In this document: positions 1 to 23,083 of the stretch, piece after piece
Layout of the letters: every line of letters begins with the position of its first letter
How positions within the stretch are numbered: position 1 is the first letter of the stretch
NCBI RefSeq assembly: GCF_045037415.1
Contig: NZ_CP173438.1
Reading direction: 5' to 3' (one strand)
Source of the DNA: Escherichia coli
Lineage (GTDB): Bacteria > Pseudomonadota > Gammaproteobacteria > Enterobacterales > Enterobacteriaceae
Length of the DNA stretch: 64,000 nt
Program-made: the position numbers and the translations under genes
Notes under the pieces: generated by a model
The model's database searches: none
Seen by the model: only the letters and a program-made list of their open reading frames with translations
What the model was told of the DNA's origin: nothing

Positions 1-1880
1 TTGCAAAAAATGAAAAAAGTAGTGCGACAGGTATATCTCTGGAAGCGACCACGGGAAATAATTTAACGCTCAATGGCACAACCATAAATGCTCAAGGTAA
101 TAAGAGTTCCAGCAACGGCTCTACGGCAATTTTTGCTCAAAAGGGTAATTTGTTGCAGGGTTTTGACGGTGATGCAACCGACAACATCACCCTTGCTGAC
201 TCAAATATTATTAATGGTGGGATTGAAACAATAGTTATTGCCAAGGAGAATAAGGGAATTCATACAGTCAACCTGAATATTAAGGATGGCTCAATAATTG
301 GGGCGGCTAATAATAAACAAACAATTTATGCCTCTGCTTCGGCACAAGGCGCAGGTTCAGCAACGCAAAATTTAAATTTGTCTGTTGCTGATTCAACCAT
401 CTACTCTGATGTCCTGGCCCTTTCTGAAAGCGAGAATTCAGCCGGTACCACAACAAATGTAAATATGAACGTTGCCCGCTCTTACTGGGAAGGTAATGCT
501 TATACGCTCAATAGCGGCGATAAAGCGGGTAGTGATCTGGATATAAATCTTTCCGATAGTTCAGTCTGGAAAGGCAAAGTTTCAGGGGCAGGAGATGCCA
601 GTGTATCTCTGCAAAACGGGTCTGTCTGGAATGTTACGGGTTCCTCAACTGTTGATGCTCTGGCAGTAAAAGACAGTACGGTTAATATCACGAAGGCTAC
701 AGTCAATACTGGCACGTTTGCTTCTCAAAACGGCACTCTGATTGTTGATGCCTCTTCTGAAAACACTCTGGATATCAGCGGAAAAGCGAGCGGTGACTTG
801 AGTGTTTACAGTGCGGGTTCATTGGATCTTATCAATGAACAAACGGCATTTATTTCTACCGGCAAAGACAGCACTCTAAAAGCCACAGGCACAACGGAAG
901 GTGGTCTGTATCAATATGACCTGACACAGGGAGCTGATGGTAACTTTTATTTCGTAAAAAACACGCATAAAGCATCCAACGCCAGCTCCGTGATTCAGGC
1001 AATGGCAGCTGCTCCGGCTAACGTCGCTAATCTGCAGGCTGACACGCTCTCCGCCCGTCAGGATGCTGTCCGTCTGAGCGAAAATGACAAGGGTGGCGTA
1101 TGGATTCAGTACTTTGGCGGTAAACAGAAACATACCACCGCGGGAAATGCATCCTATGACCTGGATGTAAATGGTGTAATGCTGGGTGGTGATACCCGCT
1201 TCATGACTGAAGATGGTAGCTGGCTGGCCGGTGTGGCGATGTCTTCTGCGAAAGGTGACATGACTACCATGCAGAGCAAAGGTGACACTGAAGGTTACAG
1301 CTTCCACGCTTACCTGAGCCGCCAGTATAACAACGGTATCTTCATTGATACTGCTGCACAGTTTGGTCACTACAGCAACACGGCAGATGTTCGCCTGATG
1401 AATGGTGGCGGTACCATCAAAGCTGACTTTAACACCAATGGTTTTGGTGCGATGGTTAAAGGCGGTTACACATGGAAAGACGGTAATGGCCTGTTTATTC
1501 AGCCATATGCCAAACTGTCTGCTCTGACTCTGGAAGGTGTGGATTATCAACTCAACGGCGTGGACGTTCATTCTGACAGCTATAACTCTGTGCTGGGTGA
1601 GGCCGGTACGCGCGTGGGTTATGACTTCGCTGTGGGCAACGCGACCGTTAAACCTTATCTGAATCTGGCCGCACTGAACGAATTCTCTGATGGCAACAAA
1701 GTCCGTCTGGGTGATGAGTCTGTCAATGCCAGCATTGACGGTGCAGCATTCCGCGTGGGTGCAGGTGTACAGGCTGATATCACCAAAAACATGGGAGCAT
1801 ATGCAAGCCTTGACTACACCAAAGGTGACGACATTGAGAACCCGCTACAGGGTGTAGTTGGTATCAATGTGACCTGGTAA
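1..1880 (+). CDS. Autotransporter adhesin (AIDA-I/Ag43 type), C-terminal passenger repeats plus beta-barrel translocator; gene begins upstream of the window
   Basis: Frame is open from nt 3 to the stop at 1878-1880 (the 150..1880 ORF is its TTG-started tail); Gly/Asn/Thr/Ser-rich repeat passenger, then barrel-like C-terminus ending in an aromatic residue (GINVTW). Confidence 0.7.
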   Translation, partial: AKNEKSSATGISLEATTGNNLTLNGTTINAQGNKSSSNGSTAIFAQKGNLLQGFDGDATDNITLADSNIINGGIETIVIAKENKGIHTVNLNIKDGSIIGAANNKQTIYASASAQGAGSATQNLNLSVADSTIYSDVLALSESENSAGTTTNVNMNVARSYWEGNAYTLNSGDKAGSDLDINLSDSSVWKGKVSGAGDASVSLQNGSVWNVTGSSTVDALAVKDSTVNITKATVNTGTFASQNGTLIVDASSENTLDISGKASGDLSVYSAGSLDLINEQTAFISTGKDSTLKATGTTEGGLYQYDLTQGADGNFYFVKNTHKASNASSVIQAMAAAPANVANLQADTLSARQDAVRLSENDKGGVWIQYFGGKQKHTTAGNASYDLDVNGVMLGGDTRFMTEDGSWLAGVAMSSAKGDMTTMQSKGDTEGYSFHAYLSRQYNNGIFIDTAAQFGHYSNTADVRLMNGGGTIKADFNTNGFGAMVKGGYTWKDGNGLFIQPYAKLSALTLEGVDYQLNGVDVHSDSYNSVLGEAGTRVGYDFAVGNATVKPYLNLAALNEFSDGNKVRLGDESVNASIDGAAFRVGAGVQADITKNMGAYASLDYTKGDDIENPLQGVVGINVTW

Positions 1881-1918
1881 GAATAAAGCAGTCGGTTCCC
1901 CTGTCGACTGTTATACCC

Positions 1919-1947
1919 CCTGCAGGCAGCAGTATGCTGCCTGCAGG
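1919..1947 (+). terminator. Perfect 12-bp inverted repeat (cctgcaggcagc-agtat-gctgcctgcagg) downstream of the autotransporter stop; possible terminator stem-loop
   Basis: Palindrome read directly; no strong T-tract follows. Confidence 0.35.
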
Positions 1948-2063
1948 CTATAAATATCCAGTACTCATGATGCTGGCTTTTTGCTGATATTTACCCTGAA
2001 CATTCCTGATACAGACTATTAATACAACCTTATCTGCGACAGATTTCATTTTCTGGATATATT

Positions 2064-2732
2064 ATGAATGAACAAATCAAACAGGATATCGATCTGATTG
2101 AGATTTTATTTTATCTGAAGAAAAAGATTCGTGTTATCCTTTTTATTATAGCTATCTGTATGGCAATGGTGCTGTTGTTTCTGTATATCAATAAAGATAA
2201 TATAAAAGTGAGTTACAGCCTAAAAATAAATCAGACAACACCAGGCATACTTGTTAGCTGTGATAGCAATAATAACTTTGCCTGTCAGACCACAATGACT
2301 GAAGATGTTATTCAGCGAATTACTACATTTTTTCAGACCAGCCCAGATGTCAAGAACAGAGAAATAAAGCTGGAATGGTCAGGAGATAAGAGAGATTTAC
2401 CAACTGCTGAAGCGGAAATATCTCGCGTGCAGGCGTCTATCATTAAATGGTATACGTCAGAATACCATAATGGCAGGCAAGTTCTCGATGAGATACAAAC
2501 GCCTTCAGCAATTAACAGTGAGCTTTATACAAAAATGATATATCTGACCAGGAACTGGTCACTGTATCCGAACGGTGATGGCTGTGTCACTATAAGCTCA
2601 CCAGAAATAAAAAATAAATACCCTGCTGCCATTTGCCTGGCTCTGGGATTTTTTCTAAGTATTGTGATTTCTGTAATGTTTTGCCTTGTCAAAAAAATGG
2701 TAGATGAATACCAACAAAACTCTGGGCAGTAA
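2064..2732 (+). CDS. ykgH: Predicted inner-membrane protein YkgH (222 aa)
   Basis: 222-aa ORF with N-terminal and C-terminal hydrophobic segments; position next to ykgG and length match my recollection of K-12 ykgH; AT-rich. Confidence 0.65.
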   Translation: MNEQIKQDIDLIEILFYLKKKIRVILFIIAICMAMVLLFLYINKDNIKVSYSLKINQTTPGILVSCDSNNNFACQTTMTEDVIQRITTFFQTSPDVKNREIKLEWSGDKRDLPTAEAEISRVQASIIKWYTSEYHNGRQVLDEIQTPSAINSELYTKMIYLTRNWSLYPNGDGCVTISSPEIKNKYPAAICLALGFFLSIVISVMFCLVKKMVDEYQQNSGQ

Positions 2733-2974
2733 TAAACAGCATTCTGACAGAGAGTGCCTGTATAAAACTATAGTGACAGTGACCGGGAAGGGAGCCCGTC
2801 TTCAGGAATGGATTCCTGTCTTTTTAACTGTAAATATCCTGGCATTATTAATGTCAGGATATTTACAGAAGAGCAGCATAACCATGACGGAACGGGGTTA
2901 AGTCAGGTTGTCCTTAACGCTATTCACAACCTCGTATACCGCCTTCAGGTTTATGTCCAGACTACATATCTCTC

Positions 2975-3670
2975 TCAGCAATCCTCAATAATCAGATACA
3001 CCGCTTTCACCGGACCATGAACCCCGACGACTTTGATAAGCTCAATGTCCGCCGTTGAACTGGGACCACTGATGATGTTAATACATGACGGCATTCGTTC
3101 ACCGGCCTGCGCTTTCTGATGCAATTTTTCTGCAAGTTGCGCTACACGCGGCAGGATTGTGCTTTTACGCAGGATAAAAAGAGAAGATTCCGGGAGCAGG
3201 CTCAATGAACGCCCGCGCCCGGCGGCGGAAAAAAGAACCACGCCTCCCGATTCGGTTAAACCATATTCAGCATATACGACGCCCACTATAGCCTGCTCTG
3301 CTTGTGATATGTTCTCAATACCTTTCGCCGGATCCCAAACAACGGCATTGCATTCCTGCTGCAAACGTTCGCTAATCCCCAATTCCTCCAGCCTCGTGTC
3401 ACCGCTAATCACGACCGACTGATCTCCCAGCTCTTTACACAGACGTATTGCAGCTTCTGCCGCCTTCGCCTCGCTGGTCAGTTCACAGCGCGTCAACATA
3501 ACATCGCTGGCAAACTGGATAAACGCGTCACAGCGCTGTTGTTGGGTAAGTTGGGTAAGCCGCTCGTTAGCATAGTTGTTAAGCGGCGCATCTTCTGCTT
3601 GCGGTTCAAGTCGCAGCGGGCGACCCAGTGCCTGAGCAACGTTATTCAAAAATTCGCTCCGATTATCCAT
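2975..3670 (-). CDS. ykgG: LutC-like lactate-utilisation protein YkgG (231 aa)
   Basis: Start taken at ATG 3670 (MDNRSEF...), overlapping the ykgF stop by 8 nt; the longer 282-aa ORF is an upstream extension; last gene of ykgEFG. Confidence 0.8.
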   Translation of the reverse strand: MDNRSEFLNNVAQALGRPLRLEPQAEDAPLNNYANERLTQLTQQQRCDAFIQFASDVMLTRCELTSEAKAAEAAIRLCKELGDQSVVISGDTRLEELGISERLQQECNAVVWDPAKGIENISQAEQAIVGVVYAEYGLTESGGVVLFSAAGRGRSLSLLPESSLFILRKSTILPRVAQLAEKLHQKAQAGERMPSCINIISGPSSTADIELIKVVGVHGPVKAVYLIIEDC

Positions 3671-10978: not shown

Positions 10979-11836
10979 ATGATCAGGCAGAAGATTCTAC
11001 AGCAGCTCCTGGAGTGGATTGAGTGCAATCTTGAGCACCCTATTTCAATCGAAGATATCGCACAGAAATCTGGCTACAGCAGACGCAACATCCAGCTTCT
11101 GTTCCGAAATTTCATGCATGTGCCTTTGGGAGAATACATTCGCAAACGAAGGCTTTGTCGTGCCGCCATTCTTGTCCGGCTCTCCGCGAAATCTATGCTT
11201 GATATTGCACTCTCTTTGCATTTTGATTCACAGCAGTCATTCAGCCGCGAATTTAAAAAGTTATTCGGCTGCTCTCCCCGTGAATACCGCCACCGTGATT
11301 ATTGGGATCTCGCAAATATCTTCCCTTCTTTTTTAATACGTCAACAGCAAAAGACGGAGTGTAGATTAGTCAACTTTCCTGAGACACCTATTTTTGGCAA
11401 TTCATTTAAATATGATATTGAAGTGTCGAATAAATTACCGGATGAAGAAGTCAAACTGCGACGTCATCATTTAGTCAGATGTATGAAGAATTTTAAGACG
11501 GATATCTATTTCGTCTCCACGTTCGAACCATCAACAAAATCGGTCGATTTGCTCACAGTTGAAACTTTTGCCGGTACGGTATGCAAACAAACCGATTCAG
11601 AGATGCCGAAAGAGTGGACAATTAACCGAGGACTGTATGCCTCTTTCCGCTATGAAGGTGAGTGGGAGCACTACCCTGAATGGGCGCGAAACCTCTATCT
11701 GATGGAATTACCTGCCAGGGGGTTAGCCAGAGTGAACGGCAGTGATATTGAGCGATTTTATTACAATGAAAACTTCGTCGAAATTGATAGCAATAACATT
11801 GTTTGCGAAATTTTTATCCCCGTTCGCCCGGTTTAG
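10979..11836 (+). CDS. ykgA: AraC/XylS-family regulator with N-terminal HTH and C-terminal GyrI-like effector domain (Rob-like architecture); possibly ykgA
   Basis: N-terminal AraC HTH (SIEDIAQKSGYSRRNIQLLF ... GCSPREYR); start taken at MIRQKIL; the symbol is assigned by position only. Confidence 0.5.
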   Translation: MIRQKILQQLLEWIECNLEHPISIEDIAQKSGYSRRNIQLLFRNFMHVPLGEYIRKRRLCRAAILVRLSAKSMLDIALSLHFDSQQSFSREFKKLFGCSPREYRHRDYWDLANIFPSFLIRQQQKTECRLVNFPETPIFGNSFKYDIEVSNKLPDEEVKLRRHHLVRCMKNFKTDIYFVSTFEPSTKSVDLLTVETFAGTVCKQTDSEMPKEWTINRGLYASFRYEGEWEHYPEWARNLYLMELPARGLARVNGSDIERFYYNENFVEIDSNNIVCEIFIPVRPV

Positions 11837-11960
11837 CCTGTAACTCCATCACATAAGATTTACCCTACCCTGCCACCGTCTAATCGGTGCCAGGGTAGGT
11901 ATTCAGTAAATAATGGCGCTGCGCATGTCAACGCCATTATTATTTATTACATCGTCGTTT

Positions 11961-14900
11961 TTATTTCTCCTCAGCACCTTCAGTATCTGCAGGAACGGCG
12001 TTAATTGTCACAGTCACGGGTTTCATTTCATACCCTCCATATGTCAAAGAGTTGAATGTGAATGTGTATGTACCTGGCTTGTTGGTACTAAATGTACGCG
12101 TGATTTTCCCGCTCGCGAAATGGTCATTTTTCGACGGCAGGAACTGATAATCCGCCTCTGTCACCCCTTCCGGAGCCTCAATGTCGACCCACATGGTTCC
12201 TCCTACCGGGTTGTTTGCCGAGAACAGGGTTACCGTCAGTGTTGCTGTCGTTACCCCATCCGCCACCAGAGAATGCACATCAGATGTTGCGGCGAGCTCC
12301 GCGTTTTTATCATCCGCGACGAATTTAGATTCGGCAGTTTTCGTCGATTCCTGACCGTCGGCCTGTTCCACTTTCGCCGTGAGTGTATATGTCGCTGCGA
12401 CAGTGGTCGTGGCGGTGAAAATAGCCTGCCCTTGCTCATTCGTTGTCGCCGTCCCATTGGGAGTCAGAACTAAATTTTCCGGGCTGGCAGTCAGCGTCAC
12501 TTCGCTATCTTTCAGCAGGTTGTTATTGGCATCAGTCACCGTAACTTTATACGTCTGTTTGGTTTTGCCGTCCGCCACTGCACGGTTGCCAATCACCTCA
12601 ATACTGGAGATGGTCGCCGTAGTCTTATCGGCCACAAACGTTACAGACTGCGCATTCGAAGGCTGGTCATTTCCTGCTGACGCCGTGATCTCATAGGTTC
12701 CGGCAGTCACGGAAACCACCTGCAACTCCGCTTTCCCCTCATCGTTGGCTTTCACCCACACATTATCGCCTGTAAGCGGCTTGACACCCCGGGGCAGATT
12801 AAAGGTCACCAGGCTCCCTGGAACAGGGTTACCATTTTTATCCTCAACGTTCGCCGTCAGCGTAAAGGCATCTTTGCCGTTTGCCACTTTTTGAACGGCG
12901 GTGTCTACCTGCAGGTTTGCCTGACCGGTGCTGGCATCCGCGTTGAATTTCACCGTGACCGTCTTCTGAGCACCATTCACCGAAGCGGAAATATTGTGTT
13001 CTCCCGCAACCGTTGACATAAGCTCAATGTCCACTTTCCCTGCCGCATTGGTTGTTACTGTATTCCCCGTCTTGCTGGTCACACCCTGCGGTAAAGTCAG
13101 CGTAACTTCTTGCCCCTGCAACGGGTTACCATAGCTGTCCACGACGGTCAGGGTTATCTGGTTAGCAGACTGTCCATTAGCCAGTTGGTTATTAACCTTC
13201 ACTGTCATATCACGAATCTCAGCCTTAGATGCGTCACCTGCAACATTCAGCACCAGTGGCTGAGCAACGGCATTTTGGCCGTTCACTCGCGGCATCACAG
13301 ACAACTGACCCGCGGCAGATCCCAGCGTTAAGGTCGACACGTAGACCCCATTACCTTTCTCTGTCCAGTTTCCTGCTGAAGGACGCTCACTCCCCGTGCT
13401 GGCGGCACCACTAAACACTGGTGCATCTGGCTTCAGCCCGGTGACCGGATTCCCGTACGCATCCTTCACGGTGAAGGTGAGTTCCGTCGTCGTTTTAACC
13501 GTTGGAGTTTTATTGTCCGCAACAAGCGTAGAGTTCGCTGATGACATCTCTCCGGCAATAACAGTCAGCTGCGCGGCTTCGGTGGCTGCAGGCTGGCCGT
13601 TGAAGAGCGGCATGACACGAAGCTCGCCCGTCTTTCCGCCTGTAGTTAACGTAGCAACATAGGAACCGTCACCTTTTTCGGTCCAACTGGAAACGGTCGC
13701 CCCTTCAGAGGCGGTCCCCGTCAAACTTGCCGACAACGAAAGACCACTGATAGCGTTGCCATGCGCATCTTTCGCCACCAGCGTTACGGTTGTGCTTTCA
13801 CCGGCTTTTACGTGATCTTCTGCGACAGAGACTTTCGACTGGTTTGAAGATAATGCATCAGCCACCACGGTTACTTTTGCCGCATTCGCTGCCGCGTCCT
13901 GCCCATTGAGCTTCGGCATAACGTCTAATTCACCCGCCGTAGTGCCGAGAGAAATCTGCGCAATCCAGGTCCCGTCGCCATTATCCGTCCAGCCTGATGC
14001 CGTAGAACCAGCAGCAGCTGCGCCCGATAATGACGGTGCATCCGGATTGAGGCCAGTTACAGGGTTGTCATTAGCATCTTTTGCCGTCCAGATTGCCGTA
14101 ACTGTACCGCCAACCACCGGTTTATCAGGATTCAGGGTGATGGACGAATGTGCTGCATCAAGCGGCCCGGCAACAAACTTCAGCGTTTGTTGTAACGTGC
14201 CCAGCTGATACTGCTCGCTGAAGGCACGCACAACAACGTTCCCGGCACGGGTCGAAGAAACCGTGGCGCTGTAAACCCCTGGTTTTATTTCCGAAATGGC
14301 ACCAACGGTTACACCATTAGTGTCTTGCGGAACAAGTCGCAGGCGGCTGGCTTCTCCCGTCACCGGATTACCCTCGGAGTCCACCGCTGTCAGTGTCAGC
14401 GTGTAGGCTTGCTGACCATCAGCAACCACATCACCTGACGGCTCGTTAGCGCTCAGGGTGGAGTTTGCCACATCCATCATCGTGGCCCGCAGTTCTGCAG
14501 TGACAGTTTTGCTCATGTCATCAACGCTAACAGTAATCGTTGCCTCACCTGACTGCGTTCCGGTAGTAAAGACAGACTGATACACCCCTGATTCAGTTTC
14601 GGTGAACTCACCCAGTGTTGGCTTTGCCTGTGATTTAGTGGCCTTCAGGGTACGAGTCACAATATTTCCAGCCGGTTTGAAGGTTAGTTCAGTCTTGATC
14701 TGATCTTTCATGCCCGTGACTGGCTGACCCTCGGCGTCGCGCAGAGACAGCACCAGCGGCTTTTGCTCATTACCGTTAGCAAGCATTTGAATACGGCTCT
14801 GACCGTCAAGCGTTAACGCCGTACGATCGGCGCTCATACCAGCTCCGCTAATAACCACTTCTGTCTGCACACGTTTCGAGGCATTGCCTTTGTTATCGTA

Positions 14901-16208
14901 GGCAATCGCTGAAATCGCATAATAATTGTCTTTGCCTGCCTGATAAGCCGGGAGCGTCACTTGCCACTGATTGCCCTGCCCCGTAATTTTTCCGCCTGCG
15001 GCCAGCAAAGACGGCGCTTCCCATTGCACATTTTTCAGACCGTGAGTTGCTTTGCTGACCACAAGCCCCAGGGAAACCGTCTGGCCGCCCTTGCCTTCAA
15101 TACGCTCAGGCAGAGCAATACGGATCACTTCAGATTTGCGATACTCAAGAACGATATTGTTATTACGCTCAACCAGGTCATAGCGGCTGCCTGCCAGCAT
15201 TCGACGCTCGCGAATGCTGTCTGTATCGAGTTGTTTTTCCAGAGGTTCGCCAATCCGATAATTAACTTCCAGGCCAAAGCGAGTGTCATTCTCACCACTC
15301 TTGCCCTGCTTATGCCCGGCACTCAGGGTCAGAAGAGGCACTGGCGTGTAATTCACTTCAGCGGTAATCGCATGTGGATCTTTCTGGCGTTTATCTTTAC
15401 CAAACAGCCCGACTTCATCGCCATAATACTGTTCATACATGAGGCTTGCGCCAAGCTGCGGCCAGGCAGGTAAATAGCCCTCAGCACGAATATCCCAGCC
15501 ATTCGCCGGGCGTTCCTGATAATCCTCAACATCCGGCGATTTTTTCCAGCCAGAAGCCCGGATATAACCATTGGCGCTCAGTTTCAAATAATCACGCCAG
15601 TATTCCGCACCAACACCAATGCGGGTATGACTACGGGATAAATCATGATCGATAAAAGTATTCACCCCCGCCATCCAGTCATTTTCTGAAAAATGACGCC
15701 AGCCAAAACCAATATTTGACTGAGTACGATCGTCGGTACGATGTATTGCCCCCTGAGTGAACAACATATTTGTCGGTGTATCATAAATCGGATAAAGCAT
15801 TTCCAGCGAAGAGTCCTTCAGCGAGAAATTTTTATCGACATTCAGTTTGACGCGCGCAGTACCGTATTTCCCGAGCCACTCCTGAATTTCCTGGTTAGCT
15901 TTAGCGGTGGCCATTCCGGTAATAAAGTTACGTGTCGCATCGCTATCTGGCTGACTGCTTAAAAATGTCCCGGCATTAGCGGCAAGCGACGCGACATTTT
16001 TCTCCACGTTATTATTAGCAGTTACCGTAGTATTTTCCATGCTCAACCGTGGCTGAACCGCATGCTGCGCACGTGCTGCCATTACTGGCGTAAAGGTGAC
16101 TGCGAGTGGAAAAAGAACCTGAACAGAGATATTTGCCCACGCCACGCAGCGGGCCAGAACTGAATAACGAAATCGTGGCTGTTTATTGTCTGTTTTATAA
16201 CGTGACAT
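11961..16208 (-). CDS. eaeH: Intimin/invasin-like adhesin EaeH/FdeC, full length (1415 aa)
   Basis: N-terminal MSRYKT...RFRYSVLARCVAWANISVQVLFPLA, inverse-autotransporter barrel region, then many Ig-like repeat modules; K-12 carries only a truncated copy. Confidence 0.85.
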   Translation of the reverse strand: MSRYKTDNKQPRFRYSVLARCVAWANISVQVLFPLAVTFTPVMAARAQHAVQPRLSMENTTVTANNNVEKNVASLAANAGTFLSSQPDSDATRNFITGMATAKANQEIQEWLGKYGTARVKLNVDKNFSLKDSSLEMLYPIYDTPTNMLFTQGAIHRTDDRTQSNIGFGWRHFSENDWMAGVNTFIDHDLSRSHTRIGVGAEYWRDYLKLSANGYIRASGWKKSPDVEDYQERPANGWDIRAEGYLPAWPQLGASLMYEQYYGDEVGLFGKDKRQKDPHAITAEVNYTPVPLLTLSAGHKQGKSGENDTRFGLEVNYRIGEPLEKQLDTDSIRERRMLAGSRYDLVERNNNIVLEYRKSEVIRIALPERIEGKGGQTVSLGLVVSKATHGLKNVQWEAPSLLAAGGKITGQGNQWQVTLPAYQAGKDNYYAISAIAYDNKGNASKRVQTEVVISGAGMSADRTALTLDGQSRIQMLANGNEQKPLVLSLRDAEGQPVTGMKDQIKTELTFKPAGNIVTRTLKATKSQAKPTLGEFTETESGVYQSVFTTGTQSGEATITVSVDDMSKTVTAELRATMMDVANSTLSANEPSGDVVADGQQAYTLTLTAVDSEGNPVTGEASRLRLVPQDTNGVTVGAISEIKPGVYSATVSSTRAGNVVVRAFSEQYQLGTLQQTLKFVAGPLDAAHSSITLNPDKPVVGGTVTAIWTAKDANDNPVTGLNPDAPSLSGAAAAGSTASGWTDNGDGTWIAQISLGTTAGELDVMPKLNGQDAAANAAKVTVVADALSSNQSKVSVAEDHVKAGESTTVTLVAKDAHGNAISGLSLSASLTGTASEGATVSSWTEKGDGSYVATLTTGGKTGELRVMPLFNGQPAATEAAQLTVIAGEMSSANSTLVADNKTPTVKTTTELTFTVKDAYGNPVTGLKPDAPVFSGAASTGSERPSAGNWTEKGNGVYVSTLTLGSAAGQLSVMPRVNGQNAVAQPLVLNVAGDASKAEIRDMTVKVNNQLANGQSANQITLTVVDSYGNPLQGQEVTLTLPQGVTSKTGNTVTTNAAGKVDIELMSTVAGEHNISASVNGAQKTVTVKFNADASTGQANLQVDTAVQKVANGKDAFTLTANVEDKNGNPVPGSLVTFNLPRGVKPLTGDNVWVKANDEGKAELQVVSVTAGTYEITASAGNDQPSNAQSVTFVADKTTATISSIEVIGNRAVADGKTKQTYKVTVTDANNNLLKDSEVTLTASPENLVLTPNGTATTNEQGQAIFTATTTVAATYTLTAKVEQADGQESTKTAESKFVADDKNAELAATSDVHSLVADGVTTATLTVTLFSANNPVGGTMWVDIEAPEGVTEADYQFLPSKNDHFASGKITRTFSTNKPGTYTFTFNSLTYGGYEMKPVTVTINAVPADTEGAEEK

Positions 16209-16758
16209 TGAGATAATTTCCTGATGAACGAATTAACGAACATAGGCAGACACAAATAATGGCGTCTGCTTGTCAGAAAAACCGGGGATTTCCCGGTTTC
16301 CTTTTCCACAGAAAAGGAAATACCTTTATGTAAGAAAGTACACCGCCACCTAATATATCCAGTGTCTGTAGCCACTCATCAGGTGGTTGGGCGCGGGATT
16401 ATATTTTTATTTATGGGTAAAAATTTAGCTTTTTGTGCAAGTCATTAAATAGATACTTAAGTTATATTTCTTACTCTGCGGGCAGTGAATAATTCATTAT
16501 CCAGAGTGAATAATAATGACCCGTCTTTAATTAACTGCTATTGGGAGTACGTCGAAGTAAGTATATACGCCGGGATAAACCAATATATTTTTTATGGACA
16601 TTCATTTTTATTCATCGGACTGTAAATTCCGGGGATATCGAACTTGCACGACTAATCTCAACCCTCAAACAGATTTATGAATTTTGTTCATAACCCCTGA
16701 CAAATCCTGCCGTCTAATCGAGCTCTTCCCTTTACGTTATGCTTCTCATGAACGATAA

Positions 16759-19682
<2,924 letters not shown>

Positions 19683-19764
19683 CTAAACTTTCAGGAGATT
19701 TATTATGAATAAACGTATTCTCACGATTGCGCCATTCTTCTTACCGATATTCTGACACACATCA

Positions 19765-20691
19765 TTAACTTTCTATTTTTACTCTTTTCTCCACCATAAA
19801 ATCAATAAAAGCACGAACTTTAGAGGGCATTCTCACCCGAGATGAAACATATATATAAAATCCAGGAAATGAAACGGCCCAATCCTCAAGAATCGGCTGT
19901 AACTTGCCCGCATTGATATGTTCAGCGATTGCAAAATCCAGATGTTGAATGATACCCGTTCCATTCAGCGCCATTCGTATCATGCTTTCGTCATCATTAG
20001 AAATATACTTACCTGACACCTCTATTTCGAACTCTTCATTACCCCCCACAACATTCGAAAACTCCCATGCTGAGAGTGCACCGCTACTTTTATGCCGCAA
20101 CCGAAGACAATTATGGTTACTCAATTCCTGAGGAGTTTCAGGAATACCGTGTTCTTTTAAATAATCTGGCGATGCCACAGTAACCAGTTTAATAAGCGGA
20201 GAAACAGGAATGGCAGTCATATGCTCATCCAGTCCTTGCTCAAGACGTATGCCCACATCACAGCCGTCCGCAATAATGTTAGATAAACCGTCATCCATAA
20301 TGAGTTCTATCTTTGTTTTGGGGTAACGAGTAAGAAACTCGCCAATATGAGGCTCAACAAGCATCCTTGCTGCAACACGGGAGGAATTTATTCTCAACAG
20401 TCCTGTAGGTTCAAGTTGGGTATCACCGACATCTTTCAACGCATCATCAATTTGCCCCAAAGCCGACACCAGCACTTCATACAGATGCTGTCCTTCCTCA
20501 GTAAGCGACATATTGCGGGTTGTACGGTATATCAGCTTGGTGTTAAGACGTTCCTCAAGAGATTTTAAATTCTGGGACAATGCGGCCCGCGTAATACCCA
20601 TTTCAGAGGCTGCTCTGGAAAAACTGCCGGCACGAACAATCAGCGCAAACCAGGCAAGGGAAGGCAAAATTGAAGGCTCTATTTTCATCAT
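19765..20691 (-). CDS. LysR-family transcriptional regulator
   Basis: LysR HTH (FALIVRAGSFSRAASEMGITRAALSQNLKSLEERL); start taken at MMKIEPS; divergent from the hydrolase gene. Confidence 0.7.
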   Translation of the reverse strand: MMKIEPSILPSLAWFALIVRAGSFSRAASEMGITRAALSQNLKSLEERLNTKLIYRTTRNMSLTEEGQHLYEVLVSALGQIDDALKDVGDTQLEPTGLLRINSSRVAARMLVEPHIGEFLTRYPKTKIELIMDDGLSNIIADGCDVGIRLEQGLDEHMTAIPVSPLIKLVTVASPDYLKEHGIPETPQELSNHNCLRLRHKSSGALSAWEFSNVVGGNEEFEIEVSGKYISNDDESMIRMALNGTGIIQHLDFAIAEHINAGKLQPILEDWAVSFPGFYIYVSSRVRMPSKVRAFIDFMVEKRVKIES

Positions 20692-20847
20692 TGTAAACCT
20701 TAACTTAACACTGTGATAGATATTAGACCATTGATGATAACCAATACAAGTCATACTATTACGCCGTTCGCGATATGAACACGAATGCCAGTTGCGGATA
20801 ATAGAAATGATATTTAAATCTGTTTAGGCAAATCCCTGGAGCTTGAA

Positions 20848-21768
20848 ATGAAAACTGTTTCAATAAAACACACTTACTGGGATATAGCTGCTGATATCTA
20901 TTTCCCTGACGATTTTAATAGTGAAAAAAAGTATCCTGCCATTATCAGTGCCCATCCAATTGGAAGCTGCAAAGAACAGACATCGGGTAGTGTGTATGGT
21001 GCCGCCCTGGCAAAAGCTGGCTTTATCGTCATTGCTTTTAATGCCAGTTTTCAGGGAAGCAGCGGTGGAGAACCGCGTTATCTGGAAGATCCAACAATGC
21101 GAGTAAAAGACTTCAGCATTGTCGTTGATTACCTTACCACCTTACCTTACGTTGATGCCGGGCGTATTGGTGTACTGGGTATTTGTGGTGGAGGTGGATA
21201 TGCCATTAATGCCGCAATGACAGAACGTCGGATTAAAGCCATTGGTACTGTCACAGGTGCAAACTACGGGCGTCTTATGCGTGAGGGATTTACAGCGTTT
21301 AATCCTATCGGAGCACTCGAAGCAATGGCGCAACAAAGAACAGACGAAGCTAACGGCGCAAAACTTCGCGTAGATGATTTGCTTCCTTCTTCTCCGGAAG
21401 CAGCTCTTGAAGCGGGATTAACAGAAATAGACCTTTTTGAAGCAACAGAATATTATCGTTCGCCACGAGGCTGTGCGCCTAATGGGGTAAATCGTTCGCT
21501 ATTTTCACATCAGACTGTTGCCGTGGGCTGGGATGCTTTTCATCTTGCAGAAGTCCTGTTAACTCAACCACTAATGGTTGTAGTAGGCGATAGAGTGGGC
21601 GCTTTTGGTGCCTATCGTGACGGCTGCGAAATTATTGGTCGTGCAGCCTCAAAACATAAAGAGTTGGTCGTGGTTGAAGGTTATTCACATTACGACCTGT
21701 ATGATAAGCCAGAACCTGTGAAACAGGCGCTCGATAAATTAATTCCTTTTTACAAAACACATTTGTAA
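20848..21768 (+). CDS. Alpha/beta hydrolase, dienelactone-hydrolase-like
   Basis: Nucleophile-elbow-like motif with Cys (GICGGGGYA) and alpha/beta-fold length. Confidence 0.55.
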   Translation: MKTVSIKHTYWDIAADIYFPDDFNSEKKYPAIISAHPIGSCKEQTSGSVYGAALAKAGFIVIAFNASFQGSSGGEPRYLEDPTMRVKDFSIVVDYLTTLPYVDAGRIGVLGICGGGGYAINAAMTERRIKAIGTVTGANYGRLMREGFTAFNPIGALEAMAQQRTDEANGAKLRVDDLLPSSPEAALEAGLTEIDLFEATEYYRSPRGCAPNGVNRSLFSHQTVAVGWDAFHLAEVLLTQPLMVVVGDRVGAFGAYRDGCEIIGRAASKHKELVVVEGYSHYDLYDKPEPVKQALDKLIPFYKTHL

Positions 21769-21940
21769 TAACCTTGCAGGGAGATTCATTATCTCCCTGA
21801 CATTTATCCTTTATTGACTACACGACAATAATAAAATTACTCAAAAAGAATTCTATTAAAGGAAAAAAGCATCAAAAAGTAGCAACTCAACTTATTAAGA
21901 TTATACGCATTAAAATCAGATAAACATTTGAGGTATTGTT

Positions 21941-23083
21941 ATGACAAATAAACACCCATCATTGTTTTCTCCTTTTATGCTGACAGAAAAAATAAAGCTA
22001 CGTAATCGTATCGTTATGGCTCCTATGACAACCTGGTCAGCTAATCCTGATGGAACCATCTCTGAGCAAGAACTCGAATTTTATAAACGTCGCTCACAAA
22101 ATGTTGGTTTAGTAATAACAGGATGTACCTATGTCACGCCAAGCGGCATTGGGTTTACTCATGAATTTGCCGCGTATGACGACCGTTTCATTAACAGCCT
22201 TGAAAAGTTAGCAGCTGCAGCCAAAAGTGGCGGTGCTCCGGCTATTTTGCAGATTTTCCACGCCGGTAATAAAGCCATCCCGGAGCTTGTGCCAAATTAC
22301 GATGTTATTAGTGCCAGCGCATCAAGCGTAAAATCTGGTGACTTTATGAAGAGAGTGGTACAAAGCAGGGAAATGACTGAAAACGAAATTCAGGAAACCA
22401 TTAGAGCATTCGGAGATGTCACAAAAAGGGCGATTAAAGCAGGTTTTGATGGCGTTGAACTTCATGGTGCGCACGGATTCCTTCTGCAGAATTTCTTCTC
22501 CCCTCTATTTAACCAGCGTAATGACCGATGGGGAGGAGATCTTGAAGGACGTATGCGCTTCCCGCTGGCCGTATTACAGGAAGTAAAAAATGTAGTCTAT
22601 GAATATGCGACAAAGCCCTTTGCTATCGGTTACAGAATATCTCCTGAAGAATCTGTAACAGGGGGACTGCGGATAGAGGATACTTATAAACTCCTTGATC
22701 GGCTCATTTCATCCGGTATTTCGTATATACATACCTCGCTGGTCAGTATTAACGATAGCTACCCTGTTGAGTCGCCAAATGGTCCCCGAACTATTGAATT
22801 GATTTTAAATCATATTGCAGGCAGAGTGCCGGTAATCGCCGCAGGTAAAATACGCACACCGTCTCAGGCTCAAGAAGCAATTTCCGCTGGCCTGCCACTT
22901 GTTGCGATCGGTAAAGGGCTGGTGATAAATCCAGAATGGGTGACTTTAGCTGAATCAGGTAGAAGTCATGAAATTCAAACAGCCCTTAATCCACAACGCG
23001 TTCCTGAATTAACCATTCCGGATAAACTATGGGATCAAATTCAGGCATCGAAAGGAACTGGCTGGTTTCCGTTAATGGATTAA
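21941..23083 (+). CDS. NADH:flavin oxidoreductase / Old Yellow Enzyme family
   Basis: OYE-family organisation (N-terminal MAPMT, central GVELHGAHGFLLQNFFSP); 380 aa. Confidence 0.75.
   Translation: MTNKHPSLFSPFMLTEKIKLRNRIVMAPMTTWSANPDGTISEQELEFYKRRSQNVGLVITGCTYVTPSGIGFTHEFAAYDDRFINSLEKLAAAAKSGGAPAILQIFHAGNKAIPELVPNYDVISASASSVKSGDFMKRVVQSREMTENEIQETIRAFGDVTKRAIKAGFDGVELHGAHGFLLQNFFSPLFNQRNDRWGGDLEGRMRFPLAVLQEVKNVVYEYATKPFAIGYRISPEESVTGGLRIEDTYKLLDRLISSGISYIHTSLVSINDSYPVESPNGPRTIELILNHIAGRVPVIAAGKIRTPSQAQEAISAGLPLVAIGKGLVINPEWVTLAESGRSHEIQTALNPQRVPELTIPDKLWDQIQASKGTGWFPLMD

Follow-up and report, generated by a model that had tools for sequence, protein, structure and literature searches.

An intact allele of the inverse autotransporter adhesin gene fdeC (eaeH) in Escherichia coli and its flanking hairpins

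In Escherichia coli K-12 the eaeH locus holds only a remnant, and the presence of a long uninterrupted open reading frame (ORF) at the same chromosomal position in another strain raises the question of whether this ORF is an intact and potentially functional adhesin gene, to which type of adhesin its product belongs, and whether such an allele is in any way special. We addressed this question in a stretch of 64,000 nt of the E. coli chromosome (contig NZ_CP173438.1), hereafter the window. With high confidence we assign the ORF to fdeC (synonym eaeH), as an intact allele of this prototype of the FdeC-type inverse autotransporter adhesins; the explanation includes a probable termination of its transcription at a downstream hairpin. 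As a copy of a well-studied gene the ORF is ordinary; it is already known and brings nothing new.

Identity and architecture of the product

The gene is the following:

11961..16208, minus strand: fdeC (eaeH) coding sequence, intact, 1415 aa plus stop, supported by the ORF and by matches to PDB 4E9L and RefSeq

The original prediction of an uninterrupted 1415-aa ORF representing eaeH/fdeC was borne out. Translation reads from ATG to TAA without internal stops, the product is identical in 412 of 414 residues (99.5%, aa 595-1008) to the crystallised FdeC fragment 4E9L, from which it differs by the substitutions I749T and V914M, and both the nucleotide and the protein sequence are 100% identical to RefSeq genes annotated as "inverse autotransporter adhesin FdeC" (WP_000092552.1). 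The alignment with six other full-length alleles, which the prediction had called for, revealed no frameshifts or internal stops; all seven alleles, including the one under study, are intact, 1415-1418 aa long and 92-100% identical at the amino acid level, and the same figures for RefSeq-annotated fdeC alleles lie within the range of >91% given for FdeC by Nesta et al. (2012). In the NCBIfam search no HMM attained its curated cut-off and no FdeC-specific model was among the matches, the best being the IatC N-terminal model (638 bits against a cut-off of 2400). The name fdeC therefore rests on near-identity and not on a family model; these low scores reflect the content of the library and do not count against the FdeC identity.

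The predicted succession of a signal region, an inverse autotransporter barrel and a long array of Ig-like repeats agrees with the results of domain prediction:

16065..16208, minus strand: signal-like N-terminus, approximately aa 1-48, read from the translation, with a putative cleavage site
15138..15983, minus strand: inverse autotransporter beta-barrel, aa 76-357 (Pfam PF11924, matches to 4E1T and 4E1S)
14805..15137, minus strand: first Ig-like domain (D00-like), aa 358-468
11970..14804, minus strand: tandem array of nine Ig-like (Big_1 / Invasin_D3) repeats, each about 100 aa long, aa 469-1413 (self-derived HMM, Pfam, AF2)

The signal-like region, as read from the translation, comprises a basic n-region (R3, K5, K9, R12, R14, R20), a hydrophobic stretch of 24 aa (CVAWANISVQVLFPLAVTFTPVMA) and an A-x-A-type motif, AARA, and only about 30 aa separate it from the barrel. 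The latter matches PF11924 (IAT_beta) at aa 76-350 with an E-value of 4.8e-110 (368 bits against a cut-off of 22.3), and its aa 113-357 match the barrels of invasin (4E1T, E 4.6e-85) and intimin (4E1S, E 9e-73). The D00-like domain was recognised by its similarity to the intimin D00-D0 structure 6TQD (aa 358-466, E 2.5e-11). Together with nine repeats found by the self-derived HMM across aa 470-1412 (Pfam passenger scores of 240 bits for Big_1 and 303 bits for Invasin_D3) it makes a passenger of ten Ig domains. AF2 predicts an all-beta structure with two beta-sandwiches for aa 1190-1415; among PDB entries this model comes closest to tandem intimin Ig domains, while InvD and invasin rank lower; in this model the final Ig repeat is the tip domain and carries no lectin cap. 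Pfam, at E <= 0.01, detected neither LysM nor lectin domains. The N-terminal barrel preceding a C-terminal passenger of the Ig superfamily (Big) is the arrangement of inverse autotransporters (type Ve), and about ten Big domains in the absence of LysM and of a C-type lectin cap are that of the FdeC type, whose prototype is described with 10 Big domains (PMC4943183) and without LysM or lectin (PMC6714894).

The description of the product as "intimin-like" holds for its architecture only. Intimin (Eae) of EPEC and EHEC has in common with it the N-terminal inverse autotransporter barrel, the D00-like domain and the Ig-like passenger, but it possesses LysM and a C-type lectin-like Tir-binding tip, both absent in FdeC, and four Ig domains as opposed to ten; besides, it lies among LEE genes, whereas fdeC here is immediately flanked by reductase and regulator genes. 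With the NCBIfam model intimin_all the product attains 389 bits, well short of the cut-off of 1400, and only its aa 57-484 align. Invasin of Yersinia and the E. coli proteins YeeJ, IatC and IatD belong to the same secretion class, and the barrel of YeeJ is 59% identical to that of FdeC (PMC5595812), but a lectin-like cap is present in all four, and LysM in YeeJ, IatC and IatD, while FdeC has neither (PMC6714894). The closest characterised counterpart is FdeC of the ExPEC strain IHE3034 (ECOK1_0290; Nesta et al. 2012, PMC3324786), with the same gene, locus and architecture; its reported length is 1416 aa as compared to 1415 aa here, and the comparison of residues covers the crystallised fragment only.

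Locus, prevalence and selection

The gene occupies the locus of K-12 eaeH and of the orthologous EaeH of ETEC H10407: next to the rcl and on the side of the ykgM/ecp genes, it converges with a ykgA-type regulator.

10979..11836, plus strand: convergent AraC-family regulator, HTH plus GyrI-like (Pfam HTH_18, HTH_AraC, GyrI-like; RefSeq annotation), an intact homologue of the K-12 pseudogene ykgA

That K-12 has only a truncated, IS-associated version was confirmed in MG1655, where the orthologous eaeH (b0297) is an 888-nt pseudogene that keeps only the first 876-888 nt and then adjoins IS3A, which truncates ykgA too. Over the 542 nt upstream of fdeC, H10407 and DH5alpha, a derivative of K-12, show an identity of 93-94%.

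A survey of 5426 complete E. coli genomes, with a coverage threshold of 80%, found fdeC in 5077, of which 4585 retain at least 80% of the gene and 492 less, and no match in the remaining 349. The truncation in K-12 is thus the exception and an intact fdeC the norm. Published figures range from a prevalence of 99% in ExPEC, with >91% identity (PMC3324786), to only 67% of 126 genomes in which the gene was complete (Goh 2019, PMC6714894), and in strain TUM13881 we found an IS1 inside an allele otherwise 100% identical to ours. The sampled non-B2 alleles differ by 6-8% at the protein level, mostly after aa 1050. Pairwise dN/dS ratios of the whole gene are 0.16-0.39; the distal Ig domains give 0.27-0.41, and the barrel, for the five divergent alleles, 0.04-0.07. 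Purifying selection on fdeC is clear, and these values are consistent with a functional gene. The claim that the allele is potentially functional stands in so far as the gene is intact and under a fitting mode of selection, but its intactness, given the 4585 of 5426 genomes above the threshold, is not a special feature.

Hairpins downstream of the gene and the putative leader upstream

The two hairpins predicted between the convergent genes, at 11857-11940, are real and lie within a few bases of that range:

11909..11941, no strand assigned: stop-proximal hairpin with a 13-bp stem, a G+C core between AAUAAU and AUUAUU (inverted repeat, fold, allele alignment)
11864..11899, no strand assigned: second, lineage-specific hairpin with 15-bp arms (inverted repeat, folding, allele alignment)

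They are formed by inverted repeats of 13 nt (11909-11921/11929-11941, 92% complementary) and 15 nt (11864-11878/11885-11899, 93% complementary), both within the spacer of 124 nt that separates the stop codon of fdeC from the end of the regulator gene at 11836. The folding of this spacer is far better than that of its shuffled versions (z = -7.8 for the strand of fdeC, z = -5.6 for the opposite one), and on either strand none of 200 shuffles was as good. The stop-proximal hairpin is present in all seven alleles with 100% of cells paired, and the three pairs that vary all remain compatible with G-U pairing on the fdeC strand. We propose that it is probably a bidirectional intrinsic terminator common to fdeC and the convergent regulator gene.

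It is conceivable, if rather unlikely, that the hairpins are not terminators but remnants of small palindromic elements or protein-binding sites. The second hairpin is indeed an indel between lineages (it is deleted in the O157, mip270 and 94-3024 alleles) and has no U-tract on either strand; the five double-sided changes seen where it is kept, mostly in NCTC86, look compensatory, but could come from maintenance of a palindrome at the DNA level. Moreover, a simple consensus-based terminator scan called neither hairpin, presumably because of a loop or tail outside its criteria. On the other hand, the stop-proximal hairpin is conserved in every allele, and its flanking A- and U-rich tracts are typical of bidirectional terminators. 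An origin from REP-like dispersed repeats was considered and rejected: the spacer is single-copy in each genome, and the arm motif recurs in the window only at the level expected by chance. An Rfam scan of positions 11000-17500 at E <= 1 returned no family match either, so that neither these hairpins nor the upstream leader correspond to a described RNA.

Upstream of the gene the following elements were delineated:

16217..16222, minus strand: AGGAAA Shine-Dalgarno sequence of fdeC, 8 nt upstream of the ATG (sequence inspection)
16209..16450, minus strand: conserved, putatively promoter-proximal or leader region of fdeC (alignments A2 and A3, consensus fold)
16440-16422 and 16403-16398, minus strand: TTGCAC box and TATAAT
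16394-16340, 16319-16298 and 16269-16246, minus strand: long stem, hairpin 1 and hairpin 3
16273..16297, minus strand: terminator-like hairpin ACCGGG-AAAUC-CCCGGU (16297-16281) plus U-tract, with a putative function

The approximately 245 nt upstream of fdeC form a local conservation trough, with a divergence of 1-4% as compared to 10-14% in the adjoining intergenic DNA, and in the literature searched we found no description of this trough and its terminator-like hairpin. The notion of an "ultra-conserved upstream region" had to be toned down, as the neighbouring HTH gene differs only by 3-7% at third codon positions (the L006 row, with an indel, being left out) and fdeC by 8-24%; this indicates that fdeC itself is hyper-divergent and the leader a local trough. 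The 53 nt upstream of the ATG, including the Shine-Dalgarno sequence, are invariant in all eight sequences of alignment A2. The terminator-like stem is kept across E. coli lineages, in Escherichia sp. E1V33 and in E. whittamii, while most of the variation in this hairpin falls in the loop; one compensatory pair was found in the hairpin at 16269-16246, and the U-tract segment UUUUCUGA (16280-16273) is complementary to the Shine-Dalgarno region UCAGGAAA.

It is tempting to consider these approximately 185-245 nt as a structured mRNA leader, an attenuator or a fourU-like thermosensor, acting beyond the H-NS-bound promoter; we regard this as doubtful. The Shine-Dalgarno sequence is predicted to be mostly paired (probability of being unpaired 0.04-0.24) and to melt only gradually between 25 and 45 C. 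However, the predicted occlusion varies with the assumed 5' end, low values are unexceptional among 40 genes of the window, and in a fixed context of -100 to +30 the region looks open (0.67). These in-silico thermometer controls do not make the idea compelling, and we keep it as a hypothesis. The consensus promoter and terminator scans yielded 6 hits versus 5.8 in shuffles and 4 versus 5.0, respectively, and never called the hairpins of interest; in the upstream one, an extension of the stem by A-U and G-U pairs would use up the U-tract. Searches for small ORFs that might explain the upstream conservation found only short, unconvincing ones, and a literature search for fdeC and thermometers returned irrelevant papers only.

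Role of the adhesin and its regulation

Judging from its near-identity to published FdeC, the allele under study would be expected to behave likewise. The N-terminal signal region would direct the protein to Sec export, the 12-stranded barrel (aa ~76-357) would insert into the outer membrane, for which assistance by the TAM has been reported (PMC4943183), and would export the C-terminal passenger, whose ten Ig-like domains (aa 358-1413) would form a rod projecting from the surface. According to the literature, the gene would be silent by default, in an H-NS-type silenced domain, with the protein appearing upon contact with host cells, at or above 39 C, or at alkaline pH. From the hairpin analysis, its transcription would most likely end at the conserved stop-proximal hairpin shared with the AraC-type gene. 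Temperature induction of fdeC is described in PMC11143625, which cites Easton 2014 on H-NS.

The published phenotypes of FdeC are context-dependent: in vitro, the wild type adhered no differently from the fdeC mutant (Nesta 2012, PMC3324786), and in APEC a deletion of the gene even raised adhesion (PMC11143625). Two other views of the gene were weighed. An intact ORF could nonetheless be cryptic, silenced, without contribution in this strain and heading for a loss of the K-12 type, as under many conditions in vitro its product was not detectably expressed (PMC3324786), eaeH of K-12 lies in a transcriptionally silent protein-occupancy domain where even an inserted lac promoter is silenced (PMC4191405), and the IS insertions and deletions are recurrent, with one in an identical allele and with the incomplete copies counted by Goh (2019). 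We find this very improbable in view of the clear purifying selection, particularly on the barrel, and of the intactness of every sampled full-length allele; furthermore, in B2 strains expression is induced by host contact, and fdeC mutants are attenuated in mouse urinary tract infection, where FdeC contributes to the colonisation of bladder and kidney (PMC3324786). The other view, that the main role is remodelling of the bacterial surface (biofilm formation, cell-cell interaction, down-modulation of motility) and not host adhesion, appears improbable too, though less so. At 42 C, APEC IMT5155 adhered more and was more motile when fdeC was deleted (PMC11143625), recombinant FdeC promotes biofilm according to citations in PMC4943183 and PMC5595812, and a lectin-like receptor-binding cap is absent. 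Against this stand the same attenuation in the host and the binding of recombinant FdeC of IHE3034 to epithelial cells and to collagens I, III, V and VI with a Kd of ~1e-8 M (PMC3324786), and host adhesion and surface remodelling can coexist. An intact gene for the FdeC adhesin remains the preferred reading.

The finding is a matter of routine annotation, the identical gene in other genomes having already been named by the NCBI pipeline. Nonetheless, among the adhesins of pathogenic E. coli FdeC is broadly conserved and a candidate for vaccines, and the intact copy means that the strain, which belongs to a human clinical clone that is widely sequenced, retains the FdeC potential. The only route to novelty leads through regulation, since H-NS accounts only in part for the tight silencing of fdeC and its switch-on by temperature or contact with the host, and the conserved structured leader offers a hypothesis for fdeC regulation that is cheap to test. 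If it were true, fdeC would be subject to a further control after initiation, by an attenuator or a thermosensor, and this could account for the lack of detectable FdeC in vitro and for its appearance only at or above 39 C or on contact with the host.

Reading frame and domain architecture

The fdeC gene (synonym eaeH) forms one unbroken ORF on the minus strand, running from an ATG at 16208 to a TAA at 11963-11961 and encoding 1415 aa, with the Shine-Dalgarno (SD) sequence AGGAAA located 8 nt ahead of the start codon. The coordinates, length and intactness given in the original prediction proved exact when the ORF was re-derived, and its identification as a full-length fdeC/eaeH is borne out by the closest PDB match of the product, the crystallised FdeC fragment 4E9L (412/414 residues identical, aa 595-1008), as well as by several RefSeq records from complete E. 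coli genomes that are 100% identical to the window gene and annotated "fdeC: inverse autotransporter adhesin FdeC". The protein of strain 18AR0845 (WP_000092552.1) is identical to that of the window, and its neighbourhood is also the same. Because none of the NCBIfam models reaches its own cut-off with the window protein, the name fdeC rests on this near-identity. By its domain architecture the protein is of the FdeC type and not an intimin; it scores 389 bits against the cut-off of 1400 for the NCBIfam model intimin_all.

The inverse-autotransporter beta-barrel occupies aa 76-350 (Pfam, E 4.8e-110), separated by only ~30 residues from the signal-like region and followed C-terminally by many Big_1 and Invasin_D3 stretches; the PDB search also matched the barrels of invasin (4E1T) and intimin (4E1S), and the intimin D00-D0 domains (6TQD) at aa 358-466. 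An HMM seeded on a single repeat and iterated within the FdeC protein revealed nine repeats of ~100 aa tiling aa 470-1412; its first iteration independently recovered two repeats outside the seed set (E 5e-17 and 7e-5), and the later iterations are circular by construction. With the D00-like domain at 358-466 added to the nine repeats, the Ig-like domains number ten, as published for FdeC (PMC4943183) and in agreement with the predicted barrel and long Ig-like array. Pfam detected no LysM or lectin domain in the protein at E <= 0.01. An AlphaFold2 model of the tip (aa 1190-1415; shallow alignment of 7 alleles, mean pLDDT 76) is all-beta and comprises two sandwich domains. In the PDB it matches tandem intimin Ig domains (D0-D1, D00-D0) best; InvD and invasin rank lower, and no lectin fold is among the matches. 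The TM-scores are low (~0.35), as is expected where the angles between domains differ.

Distribution, losses and allele diversity

A match to fdeC was found in 5077 of the 5426 complete E. coli genomes, and at least 80% of the gene lies in one place in 4585 of the 5426; ~16% are without a copy at >=80% coverage, and in 537 records the identity to the window gene is 99% or more. Over its first 25 kb the window matches dozens of human clinical isolates at 100% identity; it therefore represents a much-sequenced clone. K-12 indeed carries the truncated, IS-associated version that had been anticipated: the MG1655 orthologue, eaeH, is reduced to a pseudogene of 888 nt adjoining IS3A, which also truncates ykgA, and the arrangement in a K-12 derivative is the same. 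Independent IS insertions were observed across E. coli among the matches to the window gene, namely IS3 after nt ~876-888 (K-12), IS3 after nt 1360 (strain LD27-1), and IS1 in strain TUM13881, whose allele is 100% identical apart from the insertion.

Six further full-length alleles, chosen to cover the range of identities, all have intact reading frames of 1416-1418 aa, and their proteins are 92-97% identical to that of the window. Pairwise dN/dS values (Nei-Gojobori) amount to 0.16-0.39 for the whole gene, 0.04-0.07 for the barrel (five divergent alleles), 0.11-0.16 for the Ig domains at 358-1050, and 0.27-0.41 for the distal domains; judging from these ratios, fdeC is under purifying selection, relaxed toward the exposed tip. 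The substitutions form a mosaic and cluster after aa 1050; for example, up to this residue the ESM2.2 allele hardly differs from that of the window, and beyond it the differences come in blocks. Third codon positions of the non-B2 alleles differ by 8-13% in codons 1-1050 and by 12-24% in the later codons (window 11961-13058), which makes fdeC hyper-divergent relative to the neighbouring AraC-type regulator gene, with only 3-7%. The block-wise differences suggest recombination or diversifying selection at the tip, and the hyper-divergent mosaic pattern suits a recombining surface antigen. This pattern has been described as FdeC subtypes or variants (PMC4943183, PMC11143625).

The convergent downstream spacer

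Downstream, fdeC faces a convergent plus-strand gene that ends at 11836 and encodes an AraC-family HTH and GyrI-like regulator. Two inverted repeats lie in the 124-nt spacer that separates the two genes:

11909-11921 / 11929-11941, stop-proximal hairpin
11864-11878 / 11885-11899, second (distal) hairpin

These are the two hairpins expected there. On the fdeC strand the folding energy of the spacer is -50.3 kcal/mol, compared with a mean of -26.8 for the shuffles (z -7.8), and on the opposite strand it is -40.7 kcal/mol (z -5.6); 0 of 200 shuffles fold as well on either strand. The stop-proximal hairpin is present in 7/7 alleles with 100% of cells paired, and its three variable pairs exhibit one-sided changes that always yield G-U on the fdeC strand, corresponding to A-C mismatches on the opposite one. 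Its G+C core between AAUAAU and AUUAUU(U) has the layout of a bidirectional intrinsic terminator, from which we infer a putative terminator function. The second hairpin is dispensable, being deleted from the O157, mip270 and 94-3024 alleles; where kept, it shows five double-sided changes, mostly in NCTC86, and has a U-tract on neither strand. For the regulator gene it may serve as an accessory 3' stem; alternatively, it may be a palindrome that is maintained at the DNA level. Repeat checks ruled out a dispersed-repeat origin of either hairpin, Rfam has no family for them, and a simple terminator scan called neither.

The upstream region, a possible leader, and its regulatory context

The 555 nt upstream of fdeC are common to genomes that otherwise differ beyond a homology break at ~16758. 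Divergence between lineages is 10-14% in the middle 210 nt of this region and 1-4% in the 245 nt adjoining the ATG, so that the leader is a local conservation trough in comparison with the adjacent intergenic DNA. The elements discussed below are:

16209-16450, minus strand, fdeC promoter-proximal region or leader
16440-16422, TTGCACAAAAAGCTAAATT box (TTGCAC box)
16403-16398, TATAAT
16394-16340, predicted long stem
16297-16281, middle leader hairpin, ACCGGG-AAAUC-CCCGGU followed by U5
16280-16273, UUUUCUGA
16224-16217, UCAGGAAA

The break coincides with the start codon of the first reductase gene in a segment of this lineage (16758-23083) that lies between fdeC and the ykgM/ecp side and encodes two aldo/keto reductases, two LysR regulators, a hydrolase-like ORF and an NADH:flavin oxidoreductase. 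These genes are absent from K-12, NCTC86, mip270 and 94-3024, and O157 retains only a truncated reductase pseudogene. In 18AR0845, with its otherwise identical fdeC, IS1 (L001:1715-2412) takes the place of the second LysR-family gene (19768-20754).

One scan of a genome collection yielded orthologous leaders from the divergent E. coli E69, Escherichia sp. E1V33 and E. whittamii. The TTGCACAAAAAGCTAAATT box and TATAAT are invariant across the leaders, and the spacer between them diverges in E69; a consensus sigma-70 promoter scan called none upstream of fdeC. The E69 leader (L013:7035-7305), far more divergent than in other sampled E. coli, especially in the box spacer and the long upstream stem, several pairs of which are broken, supplied most of the informative variation.

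Three consecutive hairpins occur in the leader. The middle one, which from its sequence looks like an intrinsic terminator, varies mainly in the loop; its stem has a wobble-compatible C-to-U change in three alleles, and the closing pair is lost in E. whittamii. The third exhibits one compensatory pair (G-C to A-U). RNAalifold pairs UUUUCUGA with UCAGGAAA, a prediction in which the SD is occluded. The SD is predicted to be poorly accessible (0.04-0.24); the value increases only gradually with temperature, varies with the assumed transcript start, and is ordinary among 40 genes of the window. Rfam gave no match for the leader, and the literature search turned up no publication that connects fdeC with an RNA thermometer. 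That the structured leader occludes the SD is a hypothesis for which the in-silico controls are uncompelling.

Contact with host cells induces FdeC, a surface-exposed protein that binds epithelial cells as well as collagens I, III, V and VI (Kd ~1e-8 M), contributes to colonisation of bladder and kidney, and acts as a protective antigen (PMC3324786). The commonest inverse-autotransporter architecture has FdeC as its prototype, and assembly of the protein is aided by TAM (PMC4943183). Expression is H-NS-repressed and induced at >=39 C and alkaline pH, according to Easton 2014 as cited in PMC11143625, and the K-12 eaeH locus is a transcriptionally silent protein-occupancy domain, where even an inserted lac promoter is silenced (PMC4191405). 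The low G+C content at ~16400-16600 (0.30-0.36) is consistent with H-NS binding there.

The fdeC gene described here is already known and routinely annotated, and it is present in its common, intact state; the original observation is confirmed and its interpretation supported. The conserved structured leader is the only loose thread in an otherwise known feature.
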